From Escherichia phage vB_EcoM_NBG2: DNA of 64,000 nucleotides. Under the pieces are notes generated by a model. The model worked only from the letters and a program-made list of their open reading frames with translations. It was not told the origin of the DNA and ran no database searches. Made by a program: the position numbers and the translations under genes. Numbering within the stretch: the stretch's first letter is position 1; each line of letters begins with the position of its first letter. The stretch lies in the sequence record NC_054925.1; one strand, written 5' to 3'. Positions 2,837 through 39,047 of the stretch are shown one piece after another.

Positions 2837-3646
2837 ATGCTTAAAGAACAACTGATTGCCGAAGCGCAGAAAATTGATGCTTCCGTTGCTCTTGATAGTA
2901 TTTTCGAATCAGTTAATATTTCTCCGGAAGCAAAAGAAACTTTCGGCACTGTATTCGAAGCTACCGTCAAGCAGCACGCCGTTAAATTAGCTGAATCTCA
3001 TATCGCTAAAATTGCTGAAAAAGCAGAAGAAGAAGTAGAAAAAAATAAAGAAGAAGCAGAAGAAAAAGCTGAGAAGAAAATCGCTGAGCAAGCTTCTAAA
3101 TTCCTTGACCATCTTGCAAAAGAATGGCTCACTGAAAATAAATTAGCAGTAGATAAAGGTATCAAAGCCGAACTGTTTGAATCCATGCTTGGTGGATTGA
3201 AAGAGCTCTTCGTTGAACACAACGTTGTTGTTCCAGAAGAATCAGTTGATGTTGTAGCTGAAATGGAAGAAGAACTGCAAGAACATAAAGAAGAATCAGC
3301 TCGTCTGTTCGAAGAACTCAATAAGCGTGACGCATATATCAATTATGTGCAGCGTGAAGTGGCATTGAGCGAAAGTACTAAAGATCTGACTGAGTCTCAA
3401 AAAGAAAAAGTCTCTGCTCTGGTCGAAGGTATGGATTATTCAGATGCATTCTCAAGTAAATTGAGTGCAATCGTAGAAATGGTGAAGAAATCTAATAAAG
3501 ATGAAAGCACTATTACTGAGAGTATAAATACTCCTGATACTGAAGCAGCCGGACTGAATTTCGTCACTGAAGCTGTAGAAGATAAAGCTGCACAGGGTGC
3601 AGAAGATATTGTAAGTGTATATGCGAAAGTCGCATCTCGTTTCTAA
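2837..3646 (+). CDS. 22: prohead core scaffold protein gp22
   Basis: 269 aa, Glu/Lys-rich coiled-coil scaffold, synteny. Confidence 0.95.
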   Translation: MLKEQLIAEAQKIDASVALDSIFESVNISPEAKETFGTVFEATVKQHAVKLAESHIAKIAEKAEEEVEKNKEEAEEKAEKKIAEQASKFLDHLAKEWLTENKLAVDKGIKAELFESMLGGLKELFVEHNVVVPEESVDVVAEMEEELQEHKEESARLFEELNKRDAYINYVQREVALSESTKDLTESQKEKVSALVEGMDYSDAFSSKLSAIVEMVKKSNKDESTITESINTPDTEAAGLNFVTEAVEDKAAQGAEDIVSVYAKVASRF

Positions 3647-8210: not shown

Positions 8211-9629
8211 TTATGGATAGGTATAGATGATACCAGTTTCTAAAGCAGTTTTATGAATGATGTATCCATTACGCGATTCTTGGACATCAACTTCTGGATA
8301 GTCTTTAATCATCTTCTGAAGAGTGTAACGATGCAGGTAGTATTTACTATCTGGGTCGTCAGTTTTCCAATCTTTACCTTCTTCGGTCATTTTTTGGATT
8401 TCATCCATAACCCACCAACCGCACCAGATATAAGCTGAAGTACGATGTGGAAGAGGATGAACATAAGGTAGTTCACCTTCTGGTTCCGGAGCAACTTTAT
8501 CAGTCACTTGAACTTGACCTGTGGCTTTAACTGTTTTACTATCATAGTCAGTTGCTGTAACGACAGCAGTAACTTCAATAGTTTGACTTCCAATAGATGA
8601 GGTATCAACAGTATATACGTTAGTTGACCCTTCCACAGGAGAAGAATCTTTCTTCCATGAGTAAGTAATTTGTGCTGCTTCAGGTGCGCCATTAACATTA
8701 GCAGTAAATGTAGCCGAAGCATCTTGCTGAACATTAATAGAAGGAGGAGTCAATGTAACCTGTGGATTCATTGTCTTCTTATTAACTGTCAATGATACTT
8801 CATTGGAAGTAACTTCCTTTTCATTATAATTTTCTGCAGTTACTTGGGCTACGCATTTAATTCTTTTTACTCCACTTGTAGTTGGAGTATAGTTAAATGT
8901 AGAGTTAGTTTCTCCACCAACTTGTGAATCATCTACATACCACTGATACGTAGCAGACGCTCCGTCAGGTTGAGAAGCTAATGCAGCAGTAAATTGAACC
9001 GGGGTTCCAATTACTCCAGCAGCAGGACTAGCAGGAGTTACTGCCAAGGTAGTTGTCTGTGTCTTTTTATTAACTGTCAATGATACTTCATTGGAAGTAA
9101 CGCTCAGTGCATCATAATCTGTCGCAGTTACTTGAGCTACACACTTAATTTTTTTAACTCCGCTTGTAGTAGGAGTATAATTGAATGTAGCAGAAGTTGC
9201 TTCGCTCACAGGAGAACCGTCAACGTACCATTGATACGTAGCAGATGCGCCCGATGGCTGTGAAGCTAAGGCAGCAGTAAATTCAACGGCTGTTCCGATT
9301 ACTCCTTCTGGAGGACTATTAGGAGTTACAGCTAAAGTAGTTGTCTGTGTTTTATTTTGAACTGTAATAGTTGTACTAATTTCAGCTGTTTCAGCTTCAG
9401 AATCAGGAATAGTATTTGTTGCAACTACCTTAATAGTCTTTTGACCAGCAGGTCCTTTTAATACATAATTAAAAGTTGCTTCAGCTCCATCTTGTGGAAC
9501 ATCATCTACAGTCCAAGCATATGTAATAGGTCCATCTCCAGTTTGACCACTGGGTGTAGCAGTAAACTGCTTAGTTTCATCAATAACCCCTGTCGGTGTT
9601 TTAGGAGTTATATCAACTGTAAAAGCCAT
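8211..9629 (-). CDS. hoc: head outer capsid protein Hoc, 472 aa, with an extra Ig-like domain
   Basis: Ig-like repeats plus C-terminal capsid-binding region; T4 Hoc recalled as 376 aa; contains an internal near-identical 96-aa duplication. Confidence 0.85.
   Translation of the reverse strand: MAFTVDITPKTPTGVIDETKQFTATPSGQTGDGPITYAWTVDDVPQDGAEATFNYVLKGPAGQKTIKVVATNTIPDSEAETAEISTTITVQNKTQTTTLAVTPNSPPEGVIGTAVEFTAALASQPSGASATYQWYVDGSPVSEATSATFNYTPTTSGVKKIKCVAQVTATDYDALSVTSNEVSLTVNKKTQTTTLAVTPASPAAGVIGTPVQFTAALASQPDGASATYQWYVDDSQVGGETNSTFNYTPTTSGVKRIKCVAQVTAENYNEKEVTSNEVSLTVNKKTMNPQVTLTPPSINVQQDASATFTANVNGAPEAAQITYSWKKDSSPVEGSTNVYTVDTSSIGSQTIEVTAVVTATDYDSKTVKATGQVQVTDKVAPEPEGELPYVHPLPHRTSAYIWCGWWVMDEIQKMTEEGKDWKTDDPDSKYYLHRYTLQKMIKDYPEVDVQESRNGYIIHKTALETGIIYTYP
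8778..9353 (-). repeat. tandem direct duplication (2 x 288 bp) inside hoc encoding two near-identical Ig-like domains
   Basis: Same 35-mer ttattaactgtcaatgatacttcattggaagtaac at about 8780 and 9068; protein residues about 93-188 and 189-284 nearly identical (unit boundaries approximate). Confidence 0.85.
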
Positions 9630-21121: not shown

Positions 21122-21125
21122 CAAT

Positions 21126-21152
21126 GGGGACCTTTCGGTCCCCATGTTTTTA
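21126..21152. terminator. bidirectional terminator between gene 54 (+) and the minus-strand alt block
   Basis: GGGGACC-UUUC-GGUCCCC hairpin with flanking T-runs between convergent ORFs. Confidence 0.8.
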
Positions 21153-21440
21153 TTTACGGAATGAAATAAAAGCAGCAACTGAAGCAACTAAACTGTCTTC
21201 AATATAAACTTCAATTTTTACCGGAGCTTCTGACTCAAATTTGCCTGTTACTACACCTTGGAAAATGCTTTCAGTCTGTTCTGGCTTTGAAAAATTTTCA
21301 GAAGGAAAAATTCCGAACTTTTTATCTGTTCCAAAAATTTTGATAAATTCATCATAAACTGCTTCATTAAAAGCGTTATCAGCAGGAATAACGCCTTCAA
21401 CTACAAGTTCTTGACCTAAAAAGCGCAAAGAAGATTTCAT
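21150..21440 (-). CDS. hypothetical protein
   Basis: 96-aa ORF downstream of an early-promoter cassette. Confidence 0.6.
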   Translation of the reverse strand: MKSSLRFLGQELVVEGVIPADNAFNEAVYDEFIKIFGTDKKFGIFPSENFSKPEQTESIFQGVVTGKFESEAPVKIEVYIEDSLVASVAAFISFRK

Positions 21441-21447
21441 TTTGTGT

Positions 21448-21501
21448 TCCTCATGTTATGTCAGTAAGTTTACTATAACACAACACGAGGGACTTGTAAA
21501 C
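21448..21501 (-). promoter_or_regulatory. early promoter with stem-loop (PeSL-like cassette), copy A
   Basis: Minus strand GTTTAC -35, 18-nt spacer, TATAGT; imperfect inverted repeat spanning the -10; 52 of 54 nt identical to 37403..37456. Confidence 0.65.
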
Positions 21502-23558
21502 TACATTTTGAACTTTTTAGACATTCCGTTAATATTAACCAAAGAAGCCAAGATTTGAGAAACTTCGTTTTCCTCTTCTTTTGATTCTTCTACAAGGAAT
21601 TGATTAAATCCAGTCATTGGACGAACTTCACCAGTTTCCATTAGATGGTCGCCATCATATACCGATTCTTCTAATTGTTCAGAAGGAGGAACGATTGTGC
21701 CTTCGATTAGATACTTGTTATAAGCAGTTTCTTTCATCATGTACGTACTCACTTTATTAATCTTCAGCAAAATTCCACGTGGTAAAATAACTTCAGCTTC
21801 TGATGGAAATCCTGATAAATGACCCGGAACGATAACTTTGATTCGCTCAGCTCCTTTAATTACCATACCTACGCTAGTTTCAGCATCTTCATTCGCATAA
21901 GCAGAGTGACTGCCCATATGCATCAAATCTTCTGCGTCAACTGAACCTTCTCCTTCACCAGAAAATACTGCACTGGAATCATCTAGGGCCATATAGTTTT
22001 TACCATACTCACCGAAGATATTTGGTTTAAGCGATGTGGATACGAAGTTCTTGAAATAGAACATTTTATTTTCAATATTATGACGTAAAGTTTTAAAGGT
22101 AACTTCTTGGCCACGGTAAAGCGTAGTTCCTGGAGGAAGAACTGATCCTTTGGCAAAGGCAGAATCCATTGTCTCGATGTGTTTAATAGCTCGTTCCATA
22201 TATTCTTCACGGGTAGAATCCGGTTTACCTAAAAGGAACGAGTTCATTTCAACATATGAATCTGCACAATAATCTTCAATTACATCAGACTCAGCTTGAG
22301 TTAATCCTTTTGGAGTTACTTCAGTACTTGCATATTCATACGCTTGAGAAGCAGACTCATTAATCAATTTATAAACGCCATTCATGACAAATTGAACAAT
22401 AGCTACCTTTTCATCTGGTGTGGCTTTAGAACCTTTAACTAAATCATTGACAATTTTCTTAATAACATCAAAGCTATTAGAAATATTAATGTCAGCAAGA
22501 TCGCTTAAAATTTTATCAGTTTTATAATCAAAAAATTCTTTATTCTTTAAATATTCTTGAGAACCTTGATATGTTATATCGCTCTGTAACTTGATAGATG
22601 GATCACGTAAACGCGCATGAGCCAATGCAATATGATTTCGGAAGCTTTCTAATTCATAATCACTAGATTTAAAACGGGAAGCACTTCTCATACCACCGAT
22701 AGCTCCTTTGCTGAAGTTTGAACCAACCTGAATAACGCCAGAGTTCATTGGTCCTTCTGCTTTATATACCGGAACTTTAGATTCAAACTCTTGATATTTC
22801 TTAGCAGCGAAGCTATCACCCTGAAGTGAAGCATCGACAGTAGAATATTGAGCTTGTGCTGCTAACCGACGACTAATTTTAGTTTTCTGAATAACAGCTT
22901 GATCCGTGCGCTTATCGTTTTCTAAAGCAATAGAAGCAGCAACAGCAACAGCTTTAGGAACAGCATTACCTGTTTTAACATCTATATAAACATCACCAAC
23001 CTTTGATTCAACTTTTGTGAATAACTCAGTTGAAATAGGAGGTACACCTGGAATGTCTTCTAAATTAGCATTTTTACGGTAAACCATAATATATGCGTAC
23101 TTTTTATCGTAATCCCAGATTTCCTTTAAAAGAACATATCGACCTGCTCCTTTAGTACGTACTAAACGGTCGGCAATAACTTGCATTTGACGAGCTGCAC
23201 CATTTGTTTTACTCTTTAGTACGCGGAATAAGCATGCGTCAATTTTGTATTGTTTCATTGTCTGAAGAGCAGTATCAAAAACCGCATTAATGACACCAAT
23301 TGGATTTCCACCCAAGTTTTTAAGTTTAACTAATGATAGTTTTTCATTGACCCCTATCATTACGATATGCATCATTTTATCGCCTGGCTTAACGTTTTTA
23401 TTTGTATCACCGCCAGAGGTGTATGTACAAAATCTAAATCCAGGAAGCACGCTTTCTTCACCGGCTTGAATAGCAAAAATTTGAGGTATTTTATGCTTAG
23501 GATTTAAGTTAACAACCGGCGCCGAAGCGCCGTCAAATAATTCTGTAATAAGTTCCAT
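21501..23558 (-). CDS. Alt-like ADP-ribosyltransferase paralog (685 aa)
   Basis: N-terminus MELITELFD...; R-S-E signature (TLYRGQ, FVSTSL, EAEVILPRG); tandem to a second Alt-like gene. Confidence 0.85.
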   Translation of the reverse strand: MELITELFDGASAPVVNLNPKHKIPQIFAIQAGEESVLPGFRFCTYTSGGDTNKNVKPGDKMMHIVMIGVNEKLSLVKLKNLGGNPIGVINAVFDTALQTMKQYKIDACLFRVLKSKTNGAARQMQVIADRLVRTKGAGRYVLLKEIWDYDKKYAYIMVYRKNANLEDIPGVPPISTELFTKVESKVGDVYIDVKTGNAVPKAVAVAASIALENDKRTDQAVIQKTKISRRLAAQAQYSTVDASLQGDSFAAKKYQEFESKVPVYKAEGPMNSGVIQVGSNFSKGAIGGMRSASRFKSSDYELESFRNHIALAHARLRDPSIKLQSDITYQGSQEYLKNKEFFDYKTDKILSDLADINISNSFDVIKKIVNDLVKGSKATPDEKVAIVQFVMNGVYKLINESASQAYEYASTEVTPKGLTQAESDVIEDYCADSYVEMNSFLLGKPDSTREEYMERAIKHIETMDSAFAKGSVLPPGTTLYRGQEVTFKTLRHNIENKMFYFKNFVSTSLKPNIFGEYGKNYMALDDSSAVFSGEGEGSVDAEDLMHMGSHSAYANEDAETSVGMVIKGAERIKVIVPGHLSGFPSEAEVILPRGILLKINKVSTYMMKETAYNKYLIEGTIVPPSEQLEESVYDGDHLMETGEVRPMTGFNQFLVEESKEEENEVSQILASLVNINGMSKKFKM

Positions 23559-23561
23559 GAT

Positions 23562-25658
23562 TTATCCTTGAACGAACTTGTAAGGCATGTTTGTAATATC
23601 TATGCAAGACGCAATAATTCCAAGAGATGATTCTACTTTCTGTTTAACATTTGATGAAACAAATGATGCAAAGTCAACTCTGTCTTCTATTTCAATATCA
23701 TCTGTCATTGCAACTACTTCACCCGTTTCCATTAGACGGTCACCGTCATAAATTACTGATTCGGTGAGTTCTTCCGTAGTCATAACTTCAGCTTGAATGA
23801 GTTTTGTATTATTAGATGTTGTTCCGTCATTATTAGAAGCATCAGTTATTTTATTAACTTTGACCATCAATCCGCGCGGTAGAATAACTTCAGCTTCAGT
23901 TGCTATTCCGAGACTTCCTGGATATACAACATTAACTTTATGAGCTCCATCAATTGCCCATCCTATTTGAACTTTAACGTATTCAGGATTTTCTTTATAC
24001 GCTCTTATTTCGTTTGGATTAATAGTTATTCCTTCTTCATTTTTATCAACTGTTAATTCATTACGAGCTTCTGGTTCTAAAAGACCGATACCAGCATGTG
24101 TAATTCCAAAACGTCCAAAAATGATAGGAGTTAAAGAAGTAGATACAAAATTTCTGAAATAGAACACTTTATTTTTAACTAGCGCTTCGTATATAGGAGC
24201 AGTCATACTTTGAGCACGATAAACTGTAATGCCCTCTGGTATACGGTCACCATTTTCAAAAGCTGAATCTAAATTATTTATCGCAGATTCAATTTCTTTT
24301 TCACTCATTACATCATATCGTTCTGGATTGTAGCGGCCTAAAAGAAGATTATTGATGTCAGTATATCCTGATCCACAATACTCTCTAATGCCGCGCTTTT
24401 GCGATGGAGTATATTTAGAACCATCACGTGCAATGGTAATATCAATCATTGGACCTGCACCAATTCCAGAAAAGCTATAAATCATTCGTTTGAGGAATTT
24501 AGTTTTTGCTGCGTTCCAGGAATTTTTAGTTATTTCTTCCCAGACTTCATCTGGCTGCCCTTTACGAGTTTTATTATGTTTATCAAGCCAATTATCTTTA
24601 TATTCTTCAAATAATTGATTAACAGCTGCTGCGTATTTCTCTAAACATTTTATTGAAGTAGTTGGTTCATTTTTAATCGCATTAAGAATTACATCTTTAA
24701 TTTTTTCAGAAACTTCATTAACCTCACTTTTTGAAAAGAATTTATAGTCATAGTGAAGTTCATCTGCGGTTCCTTCGGCAATAATTTTTGCTGCCTTAGT
24801 TTTAGAAGCTAATGAATTAATTCCAAGCTTCATTTCTTCTGCTTCGGGAATTAAAGGAGCTGTAGCAGGTTTATTGAAATTAGCTGCGGTAGATTCATAT
24901 TTCTGGAATAATTCGCTTTCAAATCTAGAAGATTCTAATGACTGACTTTGTGCAATTGCTCTACGGGAAATTTTAACTTTAACGATAACAGCTTGGTCAG
25001 AGCGTTTATCATTTTCTTGTGCAATAGATGCTGCAATTGCCTCATTTTTAGTTACTTGAGCTCCAGTATCTTTATTGATATAAACATCGCCGACTTTCGA
25101 TTCAACCTTAGTAAAGAGCTCGGTACTAATTTCAGGAACTCCTGGAATGTCTTCTAGTGATACATTTTTGCGATGTATAAGAATATATGCGTACTTTTTA
25201 TCATAATCCCAGAGTTCCTTAAGAAGGACGTATCTGCCACCTGAACGACTACGGATAAGTCTATCAGCAATAACTTGAATTTGTCGAGCTTGACCAGCAG
25301 TTTTAGACTTAAGAATACGAAGCATACAGGCATCAATTTTATACTGACGCATCGTCTGCATTGCAACAGTAAAAACTGAATTGATGTAATTAATTGGGCT
25401 TGGACCGAGACCTTTTAATTTAGCAATTGAACCTTTAGCAGTTAATGTAAAAGGAACAATATGCATCATTTTATCGCCCATTTTTAAATCGCGATTAGTA
25501 TCACCTCCAGATGTATAGGTACATAAACGAAAGCCTGGTTGTTCAATTGCATCATCAACATGAACTGAAAAAATTTGTGGTATTTTCTTCTTTGGATTTA
25601 AGTTTGTAATCGGAAGAGTAGTATCTTCGTCAAATAATTCTGTAATGAGTTCCATCAT
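23562..25658 (-). CDS. alt: Alt ADP-ribosyltransferase (698 aa), ligase-proximal copy
   Basis: Same architecture and R-S-E motifs (VYRAQ, FVSTSL, EAEVILPRG); position next to gene 30 as for T4 alt; which copy is orthologous to T4 alt is uncertain. Confidence 0.8.
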   Translation of the reverse strand: MMELITELFDEDTTLPITNLNPKKKIPQIFSVHVDDAIEQPGFRLCTYTSGGDTNRDLKMGDKMMHIVPFTLTAKGSIAKLKGLGPSPINYINSVFTVAMQTMRQYKIDACMLRILKSKTAGQARQIQVIADRLIRSRSGGRYVLLKELWDYDKKYAYILIHRKNVSLEDIPGVPEISTELFTKVESKVGDVYINKDTGAQVTKNEAIAASIAQENDKRSDQAVIVKVKISRRAIAQSQSLESSRFESELFQKYESTAANFNKPATAPLIPEAEEMKLGINSLASKTKAAKIIAEGTADELHYDYKFFSKSEVNEVSEKIKDVILNAIKNEPTTSIKCLEKYAAAVNQLFEEYKDNWLDKHNKTRKGQPDEVWEEITKNSWNAAKTKFLKRMIYSFSGIGAGPMIDITIARDGSKYTPSQKRGIREYCGSGYTDINNLLLGRYNPERYDVMSEKEIESAINNLDSAFENGDRIPEGITVYRAQSMTAPIYEALVKNKVFYFRNFVSTSLTPIIFGRFGITHAGIGLLEPEARNELTVDKNEEGITINPNEIRAYKENPEYVKVQIGWAIDGAHKVNVVYPGSLGIATEAEVILPRGLMVKVNKITDASNNDGTTSNNTKLIQAEVMTTEELTESVIYDGDRLMETGEVVAMTDDIEIEDRVDFASFVSSNVKQKVESSLGIIASCIDITNMPYKFVQG

Positions 25659-30030: not shown

Positions 30031-30070
30031 GGTACAGGTATATAATATCATATCCTGTACCAAAGTAAAC
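30031..30070 (-). promoter_or_regulatory. early promoter with stem-loop (PeSL-like)
   Basis: Minus GTTTAC, 17 nt, TATTAT; 8-bp inverted repeat GGTACAGG/CCTGTACC flanking the -10. Confidence 0.6.
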
Positions 30071-30413: not shown

Positions 30414-30462
30414 CCTTTGTTTGTGTAAGATAATACTATCACAAAGGAACCATACTGTAAAC
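30414..30462 (-). promoter_or_regulatory. early promoter with stem-loop (PeSL-like)
   Basis: Minus GTTTAC, 18 nt, TAGTAT; 7-bp inverted repeat CCTTTGT/ACAAAGG. Confidence 0.55.
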
Positions 30463-36551: not shown

Positions 36552-36901
36552 TTAGAAAGGTCCTGGATGTCTTCTGCGAACTTGTTGAAGGAGTTGTTGA
36601 TTTGTTTTTCAACCAATCCTGGCTTATGAGCCACCACATCCGCCTTCTTTGCATCTTTGCGCAGTTTTTCATTTTCACGCTCAATAGCAGCAATTGCCTC
36701 ACGATTTTTATTATTCATCGCATCAATATAATTATACTGAATTCGCAAATTATCTAATGCTAAAGCGTTTTCATTGGCTGTTTTTGTAATTTCAGTAACC
36801 GATGTTTCTAATCTTTCTACCTTATTTTTTAAAATAATAGATGTTCCGCCAAATGCTATTACAAGTAATAGCAATCCAGCTGTAAAATTACTTACATGCA
36901 T
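36548..36901 (-). CDS. inner-membrane spanin (Rz equivalent, pseT.3-like)
   Basis: N-terminal TM helix (FTAGLLLLVIAFGGTSIIL) followed by coiled-coil, 117 aa. Confidence 0.7.
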   Translation of the reverse strand: MHVSNFTAGLLLLVIAFGGTSIILKNKVERLETSVTEITKTANENALALDNLRIQYNYIDAMNNKNREAIAAIERENEKLRKDAKKADVVAHKPGLVEKQINNSFNKFAEDIQDLSK

Positions 36902-37398
36902 AAAGTTTTAATAACCTCTACAATATCGTCTTGAGAAAGACCGTTAATTAAAATATGATGTTCAGCTGGAGATTTAGAAATTTTAAAGCATGCCTCAACA
37001 TCTTCTGCCATATCCGATGCGCTACGATTTGGATTACTAATTCCAAGACGATGTTTTCCCGTCAAAGGATTAACGATGATGTAGCATTTACAGCTATTAA
37101 TGTGAACATTAGGTTGAGTCTGATTAATGAACACATCACAATCGTATTTCGCAAGCTGATTTTCTAAAAAGACTTTCATCTCCTCAACCGCATCAGGAAG
37201 CATATCACGGGCTTGCTCAAGACGACGATTTCGATATTCTTTAATGGTCGTTTTCCGTTTGACTTGCTTAGCTAAATCTTTCTTAAGATCGGTGATATAT
37301 CCAACTCGACGATTTCCTTTAAATACAGAAATCCCATCTGTAGTATCACCGTATGCTTCAACGACCATCTCAGTAGTAATAAGCTGCAAATCCATCAT
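36892..37398 (-). CDS. alc: Alc, host transcription shutoff protein
   Basis: 168 aa, position between the spanins and rnlA as in T4. Confidence 0.75.
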   Translation of the reverse strand: MMDLQLITTEMVVEAYGDTTDGISVFKGNRRVGYITDLKKDLAKQVKRKTTIKEYRNRRLEQARDMLPDAVEEMKVFLENQLAKYDCDVFINQTQPNVHINSCKCYIIVNPLTGKHRLGISNPNRSASDMAEDVEACFKISKSPAEHHILINGLSQDDIVEVIKTLCM

Positions 37399-37402
37399 AA
37401 AG

Positions 37403-37456
37403 TCCTCATGTTATGTCAGTAAGACTACTATAACACAACACGAGGGACTTGTAAAC
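37403..37456 (-). promoter_or_regulatory. early promoter with stem-loop (PeSL-like cassette), copy B
   Basis: Minus GTTTAC, 18 nt, TATAGT; 52 of 54 nt identical to copy A at 21448..21501. Confidence 0.65.
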
Positions 37457-37459
37457 AGC

Positions 37460-39047
<1,588 letters not shown>

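Follow-up and report, generated by a model that had tools for sequence, protein, structure and literature searches.

Why two unrelated genes should start from almost the same 54 bp of DNA, 16 kb apart, is the question raised by the alc locus of Escherichia phage vB_EcoM_NBG2 (NC_054925.1), from which a stretch of 64,000 nucleotides (the window) was analysed here. The window comes from a Tequatrovirus, that is, a T4-like phage, and the region around alc (36900–38000) shares 98–99% identity with many T4-like phages of Escherichia, Shigella and Yersinia. Comparison of the window with itself aligns positions 37403–37456, upstream of alc (copy A), with 21448–21501, upstream of alt.-3 (copy B), without gaps and with 52 of the 54 positions identical. 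The two mismatches are neighbours and fall in the apical loop of the hairpin described below, where copy A reads GAC and copy B GTT on the plus strand. No match to the 54-mer with up to 3 mismatches appeared in 100 dinucleotide-preserving shuffles, and the chance expectation is 0. A sequence-only reading of the window had reported this near-identical pair between unrelated genes and had taken it for an example of the promoter-early stem-loop (PeSL) elements of T4-type phages, seen as portable regulatory cassettes and recombination sites. The pair and the unrelatedness of its neighbours are both borne out: BLASTP does not align Alc (Pfam ALC) with Alt.-3 (DUF5498), and the genes upstream encode RNA ligase 1 and an ADP-ribosyltransferase, respectively. 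Repeats of other kinds are present elsewhere in the window, namely a 288-nt direct tandem repeat of two copies with 79% identity (8772–9347) and GAAGAT/GAAGAA-type repeats of 9-nt period (1628–1746 and 3010–3067), which would give acidic, Asp/Glu-rich stretches if translated. The two cassettes and the genes around them are as follows.

37403..37456, minus strand: cassette copy A, from the −35 through the Shine–Dalgarno (SD) sequence, within the 61 bp that separate the rnlA stop from the alc start
21448..21501, minus strand: cassette copy B, between the stop of an Alt-like ORF and alt.-3
36892..37398, minus strand: alc, host-transcription inhibitor (Pfam ALC, E = 1.4e-92)
37460..38620 (ORF limits), minus strand: rnlA (gene 63, RNA ligase 1), upstream of copy A, with RNA_lig_T4_1 and T4_Rnl1_C domains
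21150..21440, minus strand: alt.-3 homolog of 96 aa, DUF5498, from a profile match and comparison with T4
21501..23558, minus strand: second Alt-like ADP-ribosyltransferase paralog of 685 aa, upstream of copy B

The alc start annotated in T4 is the second ATG here, at 37395, and by comparison with T4 the true rnlA start probably lies near 38584. Upstream of copy B two full-length Alt-like ADP-ribosyltransferase paralogs stand in tandem on the minus strand (21501–23558, 685 aa, and 23562–25658, 698 aa), with ~72–83% identity in patches and a period of 2.09 kb. T4 (NC_000866) is without window positions 21521–23210, a 1.69-kb deletion that takes away most of the second paralog and of which alt.-1 and alt.-2 are the remnants; the alignment blocks flanking the deletion junction overlap by 8–9 nt. 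Both copies of the cassette are present in T4. The one upstream of alc is identical to copy A of the window, and the one upstream of alt.-3, the ortholog of copy B, is one base off the T4 alc copy. On the other side of alt.-3, between it and the convergent gene 54, there is a perfect 9-bp GC-rich hairpin at 21124–21145 (ATGGGGACC ttcg GGTCCCCAT) with T-rich tails on both strands, likely a bidirectional terminator. In phage GEP001 the gene adjoining alt.-3 is annotated as ‘DNA ligase’, probably an annotation quirk.

The limits of the repeat say what has been repeated. Identity between the copies begins sharply at the G of GTTTAC, by the stop codon of the upstream gene: the rnlA TAA lies 3 nt upstream of this G in copy A, and in copy B it belongs to the TAG of the Alt-like ORF. 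It ends at the final base of the SD, GAGGA, and the flanks outside the 54-mer show background identity. The repeated unit is therefore exactly promoter, leader and SD. On the minus strand both copies carry TTTACA, 17 nt and TATAGT with a TG extended −10 (TGtTATAGT), a match to σ70 at 10 of 12 positions; the GTTTAC, 18-nt spacer and TATAGT of the sequence-only reading are literally there and are the same sequence, shifted by a base from the σ70 register. The SD at the end of the cassette lies 4–8 nt before the ATG. From the spacing we infer that transcription starts ~7 nt past TATAGT.

37450..37455, minus strand: copy A −35, TTTACA; the preceding G at 37456 gives the T4-type GTTTAC
37427..37435, minus strand: copy A extended −10, TGtTATAGT; predicted start near 37420
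21495..21500, minus strand: copy B −35, TTTACA
21472..21480, minus strand: copy B extended −10, TGtTATAGT; predicted start near 21465

From the PST/T4 PeSL consensus, TTTACW-17-TAYWAT, the cassette departs once, with G at position 5 of the −10; a TATAAT variant of the cassette is found in G28 and ZN18. Time-resolved omics of T4 place alc and alt.-3 alike in the early RNA and early protein classes (PMC9697503, supplementary file 4), and by RNA class both genes thus belong with early promoters (Pe). In the same data rnlA has early RNA and late protein, alt and denA have middle RNA and late protein, and alt.-1 and alt.-2 have middle RNA, their protein class not being available. Since the RNA of alt.-3 is early and that of alt, alt.-1 and alt.-2 upstream of it is middle, an early promoter is needed at the site of copy B, which supports the promoter indirectly. 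No mapped T4 starts, transcript ends or translation data for the alc/alt.-3 element were found in the papers searched.

The imperfect inverted repeat that had been noticed around the promoter is real by fold and by repeat analysis. On the sense strand it gives a hairpin of 14 + 4 bp, to which longer folds add 2 to 6 outer pairs, with a free energy of −22 kcal/mol (z −5.4 to −5.6; 0 of 200 shuffles as stable). The antisense strand folds at −12.8 kcal/mol (z −2.3), worse because several of the pairs are G·U. The difference between the strands, together with the G·U pairs, favours a structure in the mRNA-sense RNA over a DNA cruciform. The predicted arms are these.

37432..37450, minus strand: copy A 5′ arm (spacer and first −10 base), anti-SD
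37400..37417, minus strand: copy A 3′ arm (leader and SD, GAGGA at 37403–37407)
21477..21493, minus strand: copy B 5′ arm
21446..21462, minus strand: copy B 3′ arm, including the SD, GAGGA at 21448–21452

In each copy, then, the spacer of the promoter complements the leader and SD. The −10 lies within the hairpin, at the top of the 5′ arm and in the inner stem; its bases after the first are in the apical part together with the predicted start, which falls in the 3′ half. With the start inside the hairpin only the 3′ arm would be transcribed from the cassette's own promoter, and the SD of that RNA is therefore predicted to be free. For alc the SD is predicted to be unpaired with a probability of 0.76 in RNA from the cassette's own promoter and of 0.03 in read-through RNA. 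For alt.-3 the own-promoter RNA has a value of 0.18, from a weak pairing with the coding region of −4.2 kcal/mol as against −23 kcal/mol for the hairpin. There is no U-tract after the stem in either copy, the tails being A-rich, as they are in other genera, and a scan for the terminator consensus called the element at neither copy. The stem-loop does not resemble a terminator, and the pairing of spacer with SD points to translation control. An Rfam scan of 37300–37560 returned a chance miRNA match as its sole hit (E 0.68; 16.8 bits versus a gathering threshold of 135) and no known family.

The sequence-only reading had suggested a search for further GTTTAC promoters with flanking inverted repeats, and this succeeded in part: hairpins occur at other promoters of the window, and strong pairing with the SD is confined to the two cassette copies among the 8 early-promoter candidates. 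At the promoter at 30461 there is a weak spacer–SD pairing, TCCTTTGT with ACAAAGGA. A permutation test of spacer–SD pairing over the 8 promoters gave p = 0.025, a value driven largely by the two cassette copies. We considered SD pairing as a general trait of the early promoters of the window and discarded it, the others having hairpins round the −10 only. Minus-strand GTTTAC-type early promoters with hairpins have their −35 at 30069, 30461, 34152, 46550 and 47283. At 30069, 34152 and 46550 the −10 and the start lie between the arms (for example GGTAGAG...CTCTACC), and the stem would be present in read-through RNA only. Hairpins round these other early promoters form a general PeSL-like pattern.

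We followed the element at alc through the Tevenvirinae, using loci from RB69, VR5 and Melville, from 19 IMG/VR contigs and from eight further genera; an exact 24-mer scan of IMG/VR gave 7 stretches only, not enough for statistics on populations, and gene-anchored loci were used in its place. Nearly all alc loci have GTTTACA, 16–18 nt and TAnnnT, beginning at or just past the rnlA stop. The spacer is the reverse complement of leader plus SD in Tequatrovirus, EcS1, Gelderlandvirus, Dhakavirus (VR5 and JS98 types), Jiaodavirus, Kanagawavirus CIP9, Winklervirus, Karamvirus, Bragavirus and one more uncultivated viral genome. Four versions of the pair are seen.

SD side GAGGA, spacer side TCCTC
SD side GGAGA, spacer side TCTCC
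SD side GGGGA, spacer side TCCCC
SD side GAGAGG, spacer side CCTCTC

The sequence of the arms thus varies by genus, yet the arms are complementary within each, and the leader-proximal pairs vary too. Across genera the alc cassettes fold at −15.6 to −25.4 kcal/mol with z between −3.2 and −7.1. In the MAFFT alignment of the cassettes, made in promoter register, the arms are offset by 1–2 nt between genera; covariation was assessed from per-sequence folds, from a table of the pairs rung by rung anchored on the invariant G of the SD, and from a cross-genome duplex control. The table leans toward structure, because its pairs are read from each sequence's own minimum free energy fold. In the duplex control the spacer pairs with its own leader at a mean of −15.9 kcal/mol versus −9.7 kcal/mol with the leader of another genome. 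Within Tequatrovirus, variants in the 5′ arm keep the pairing, with G·U becoming A–U and C–G becoming U·G. Occlusion of the SD is not universal at alc: Mosigvirus (RB69 type) lacks the SD pairing and has a small hairpin within the spacer (ACACC AAGGAA GGTGT), and the stem of the Tegunavirus type and of Kanagawavirus KLB31 takes in the −10 but ends 3–4 nt short of the SD. The hairpin of Biquartavirus lies downstream of the −10, and in Acinetobacter phage 133 alc has another upstream gene and no promoter.

When 50,697 phage records were searched by blastn, the 54-mer turned up at 995 places in 498 records, all of Tequatrovirus type and about two per genome; nearly every listed record has two, at the same two syntenic positions. 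With about two copies per genome the cassette is therefore a fixed pair and not a dispersed mobile family, so that the portability supposed at the outset is contradicted, and the proposed scan for further copies yielded no additional locus in these records apart from a tandem duplication in G28 (MG867727). This duplication, of 351 bp, runs from the 3′ end of rnlA through the cassette to nucleotide 141 of alc. It creates a truncated alc ORF and a third copy of the cassette, and its junction lies inside alc and rnlA, not in the cassette. The junction of the T4 alt-paralog deletion likewise lies outside, 19 nt upstream of copy B. Alignment of the flanks with related phages, which had been suggested as a way to look for module boundaries at the element, showed rnlA–alc and alt–alt.-3 both syntenic in RB69, VR5 and Melville, with rnlA–alc adjacency kept in 7 of the 8 further genera checked, and among the genomes compared no rearrangement junction was found within the cassette. 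The idea of a recombination site for module shuffling survives only in its first half: the two copies have exchanged sequence, but gene order is conserved and the indel junctions are outside the cassette. Judging from these genomes, what is exchanged is the cassette itself and not the surrounding genes.

The direction of the exchange can be read from the alt.-3 locus of other genera. Outside Tequatrovirus the alt.-3 promoters always have a small hairpin within the spacer, with CACC...GGTG stems and a GGAA-type loop, and an unpaired SD. SD pairing is accordingly ancestral at alc and foreign at alt.-3, and the best reading of the Tequatrovirus alt.-3 cassette is that it was copied from alc by short-tract gene conversion. 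In VR5 a separate conversion in the reverse direction, from alt.-3 to alc, is visible: over 32 nt, through ATGAA, its alc leader has exactly the sequence of the alt.-3 leader in every Dhakavirus sampled, and the alc leaders of JS98-like Dhakaviruses differ from it. The resemblance of the RB69-type alc cassette to the alt.-3 type suggests a further cassette replacement in the Mosigvirus lineage. Within Tequatrovirus, G28 has the two-base variant TATAATAATC at both loci, in all three copies; in GBLB0003 the variants A16 and C27 are common to both loci; and A16, C27 and A29/A32 occur at either locus in different genomes, the sample for variant sharing being small (~ten genomes). From this pattern, occasional conversion between the alc and alt.-3 cassettes is evidently still continuing in Tequatrovirus. 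Only conversion tracts, and no crossover products between the copies, were seen among the genomes examined. Unequal crossover of the direct copies would lose or duplicate ~16 kb including the DNA ligase gene and gene 31, and the products would probably be inviable or unpackageable, so that conversion alone would be seen.

The account that we prefer, with a probability of about 0.6 overall, is that the spacer of an early promoter acts as an anti-SD and so ties alc translation to early initiation, and that this arrangement was duplicated onto alt.-3 by conversion; we are more confident than this of the promoter and the copying, and less so of the effect on translation. The cassette would be an immediate-early, σ70-type T4 promoter with its leader and SD, in which the bases that follow the −35 in the spacer are the reverse complement of leader plus SD. 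Initiation at this promoter, ~7 nt past TATAGT and inside the hairpin, would give an RNA with the 3′ arm only and a free SD. RNA reading through from rnlA or the alt genes would have both arms, and a hairpin of ~−22 kcal/mol would bury the SD. We infer that such read-through RNAs exist and that in the infected cell the hairpin prevents their translation. Synthesis of Alc, and in Tequatrovirus that of Alt.-3, would then be tied to early initiation and limited to the first minutes of infection, even though longer middle and late RNAs go on crossing the gene. The arrangement would be ancestral for alc, and in the Tequatrovirus lineage the alc cassette would have overwritten the original alt.-3 promoter. 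What benefit might follow from excluding Alc or Alt.-3 from later infection is conjecture.

The same elements could be arranged otherwise. In a classical PeSL the stem-loop would terminate or attenuate upstream transcription, the promoter would restart it and the cassette would recombine so as to move flanking genes. Most of the formal features given in the defining papers (PMC2839356, PMC4122927) can be recognised here, including the stop–start gap, the σ70-like promoter, the stable stem-loop and recombination between copies, which in this case took the form of conversion; further early promoters of the window have hairpins round the −10, and the 1.69-kb deletion of T4 ends 19 nt from copy B. 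Even so we think this reading unlikely. The many copies in hyperplastic regions and the boundaries coinciding with insertions, deletions or replacements of ORFs are not found: the 498 genomes have about two copies each, gene order is kept in RB69, VR5 and Melville and that of rnlA–alc in most further genera, and the nearby indel junctions in T4 and G28 lie outside the element. The A-rich tails without a U-tract, in both copies and in other genera, and the negative terminator scan speak against termination, and from genus to genus the 3′ arm changes with the SD sequence, which a terminator would not need. Somewhat less likely again is that the hairpin is an element of RNA stability or processing, either a stem protecting the 3′ end of processed rnlA or alt mRNA or a site for RNase III or RNase E, with the pairing of the SD incidental. 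The position of a strong, conserved stem just past the stop of the upstream gene would suit such a role, and T4 early mRNAs are heavily processed (PMC3014915), but a protective stem need not reach an SD 40 nt downstream or co-vary with SD variants, and in other genera the alt.-3 site is without this hairpin though the upstream gene is the same.

Two further alternatives place the signal in the DNA or dispense with copying. The inverted repeat has its centre at the −10 and the transcription start, and the identical sequence is found at two promoters, as might be expected of an operator for a dimeric regulator shared by both genes, or of a cruciform that modulates the promoter. In DNA, however, arms of 14–18 nt would contain G·T mismatches, the sense RNA folds at −22 against −12.8 kcal/mol for the antisense, and there is no conserved binding motif, the arms being wholly different between genera yet complementary; we regard a DNA-level element as very improbable. 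Independent convergence of the two loci on an optimal T4 early promoter is scarcely credible. T4 early promoters have an extended consensus in common (PMC2988021), and, as in the cassette, their −35 is of the GTTTAC type, their −10 is extended by TGn and the region upstream is rich in A/T. Ordinary members are nevertheless alike in the consensus only, whereas the cassette pair is 96–100% identical over 54 nt, spacer and leader included. The other early promoters of the window have only the hexamers and TG in common, spacer and leader are free to vary between genera, and no unrelated T4 promoter more than 90% identical to the 54-mer was found by blastn among the 50,697 phage records; an identity of 52–54 of 54, together with rare variants common to both loci within a genome, cannot come from convergence.

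If the promoter spacer does serve as an anti-SD, the element may stand for something wider. We advance tentatively, at a little under even odds, the idea of a switch of ‘promoter-gated translation’ in T-even phages, by which a gene within a long transcription unit would be translated from RNAs of its own immediate-early promoter only. The switch would be ancient at alc, maintained in ~ten genera by compensatory change, and transplanted to alt.-3 in the T4 genus, with a candidate host-takeover function for Alt.-3. T4 is the textbook case of expression timed by a late promoter nested in an SD-hiding hairpin. The cassette would be the same T4 device in reverse, with translation shut off after the first minutes, and would explain why the Alc and Alt.-3 proteins are early only despite middle and late RNAs running through their genes. 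The conserved protein Alt.-3 (DUF5498) would moreover be restricted to early infection in the same way as the host-shutoff factor Alc, a hint of its role. PeSL-like recombination can, on the evidence of the two loci, exchange the regulatory cassette itself, re-wiring the control of a resident gene and not shuffling genes. For phage engineering it would follow that insertions or deletions upstream of such promoters can alter translation downstream.

Two known systems bear comparison with the cassette. A PeSL is described as an intergenic early promoter with a stem-loop, for which there are five positions, and an SD, with termination suggested as the role of the loop and shuffling as that of the cassette (PMC2839356, PMC4122927). 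With the PeSLs of these papers (Arbiol 2010, Comeau 2014) the likeness lies in the intergenic stop-to-start location, the σ70-like promoter with 17-nt spacing, the SD at the end, a stem-loop over the −10, a position that is among the five described, and copies similar enough for recombination. Unlike the PeSLs of the same accounts, the cassette is present in two copies at fixed syntenic positions, not in many copies in hyperplastic regions; no gene is gained or lost at its boundaries, the cassette being exchanged and not the flanking genes; and its stem takes in the SD and is followed by no terminator tail. The identification as a PeSL made in the sequence-only reading is therefore apt for the architecture, an early promoter with a stem-loop over the −10 in a unit running from stop to SD, and fails for copy number and module boundaries.

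The closer parallel is with T4 e, soc, 49 and I-TevI, in which the SD is buried on RNAs started upstream and the short RNA of a nested promoter is translated (PMC3014915, section 29). The nested promoters of these genes are late (TATAAATA), and translation is delayed until late (PMC3014915). Neither alc nor alt.-3 is among the SD-sequestering cases in that review, and an earlier mention of the alc hairpin or of the pair is possible; the cassette is predicted to work like this family without being a described member of it. As in e, soc, 49 and I-TevI, the SD of the cassette is predicted to lie in a helix on RNA started upstream, the promoter is so placed that its own RNA, from the start that we deduce, would be without the 5′ arm, and the window of translation would be set by which promoter had fired. 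Unlike them, the cassette has its anti-SD within the −35 to −10 spacer, and its nested promoter is an early σ70 one and not the late TATAAATA. With an early promoter in the nested position the logic is therefore reversed, and the gene would be translated early and silent afterwards.
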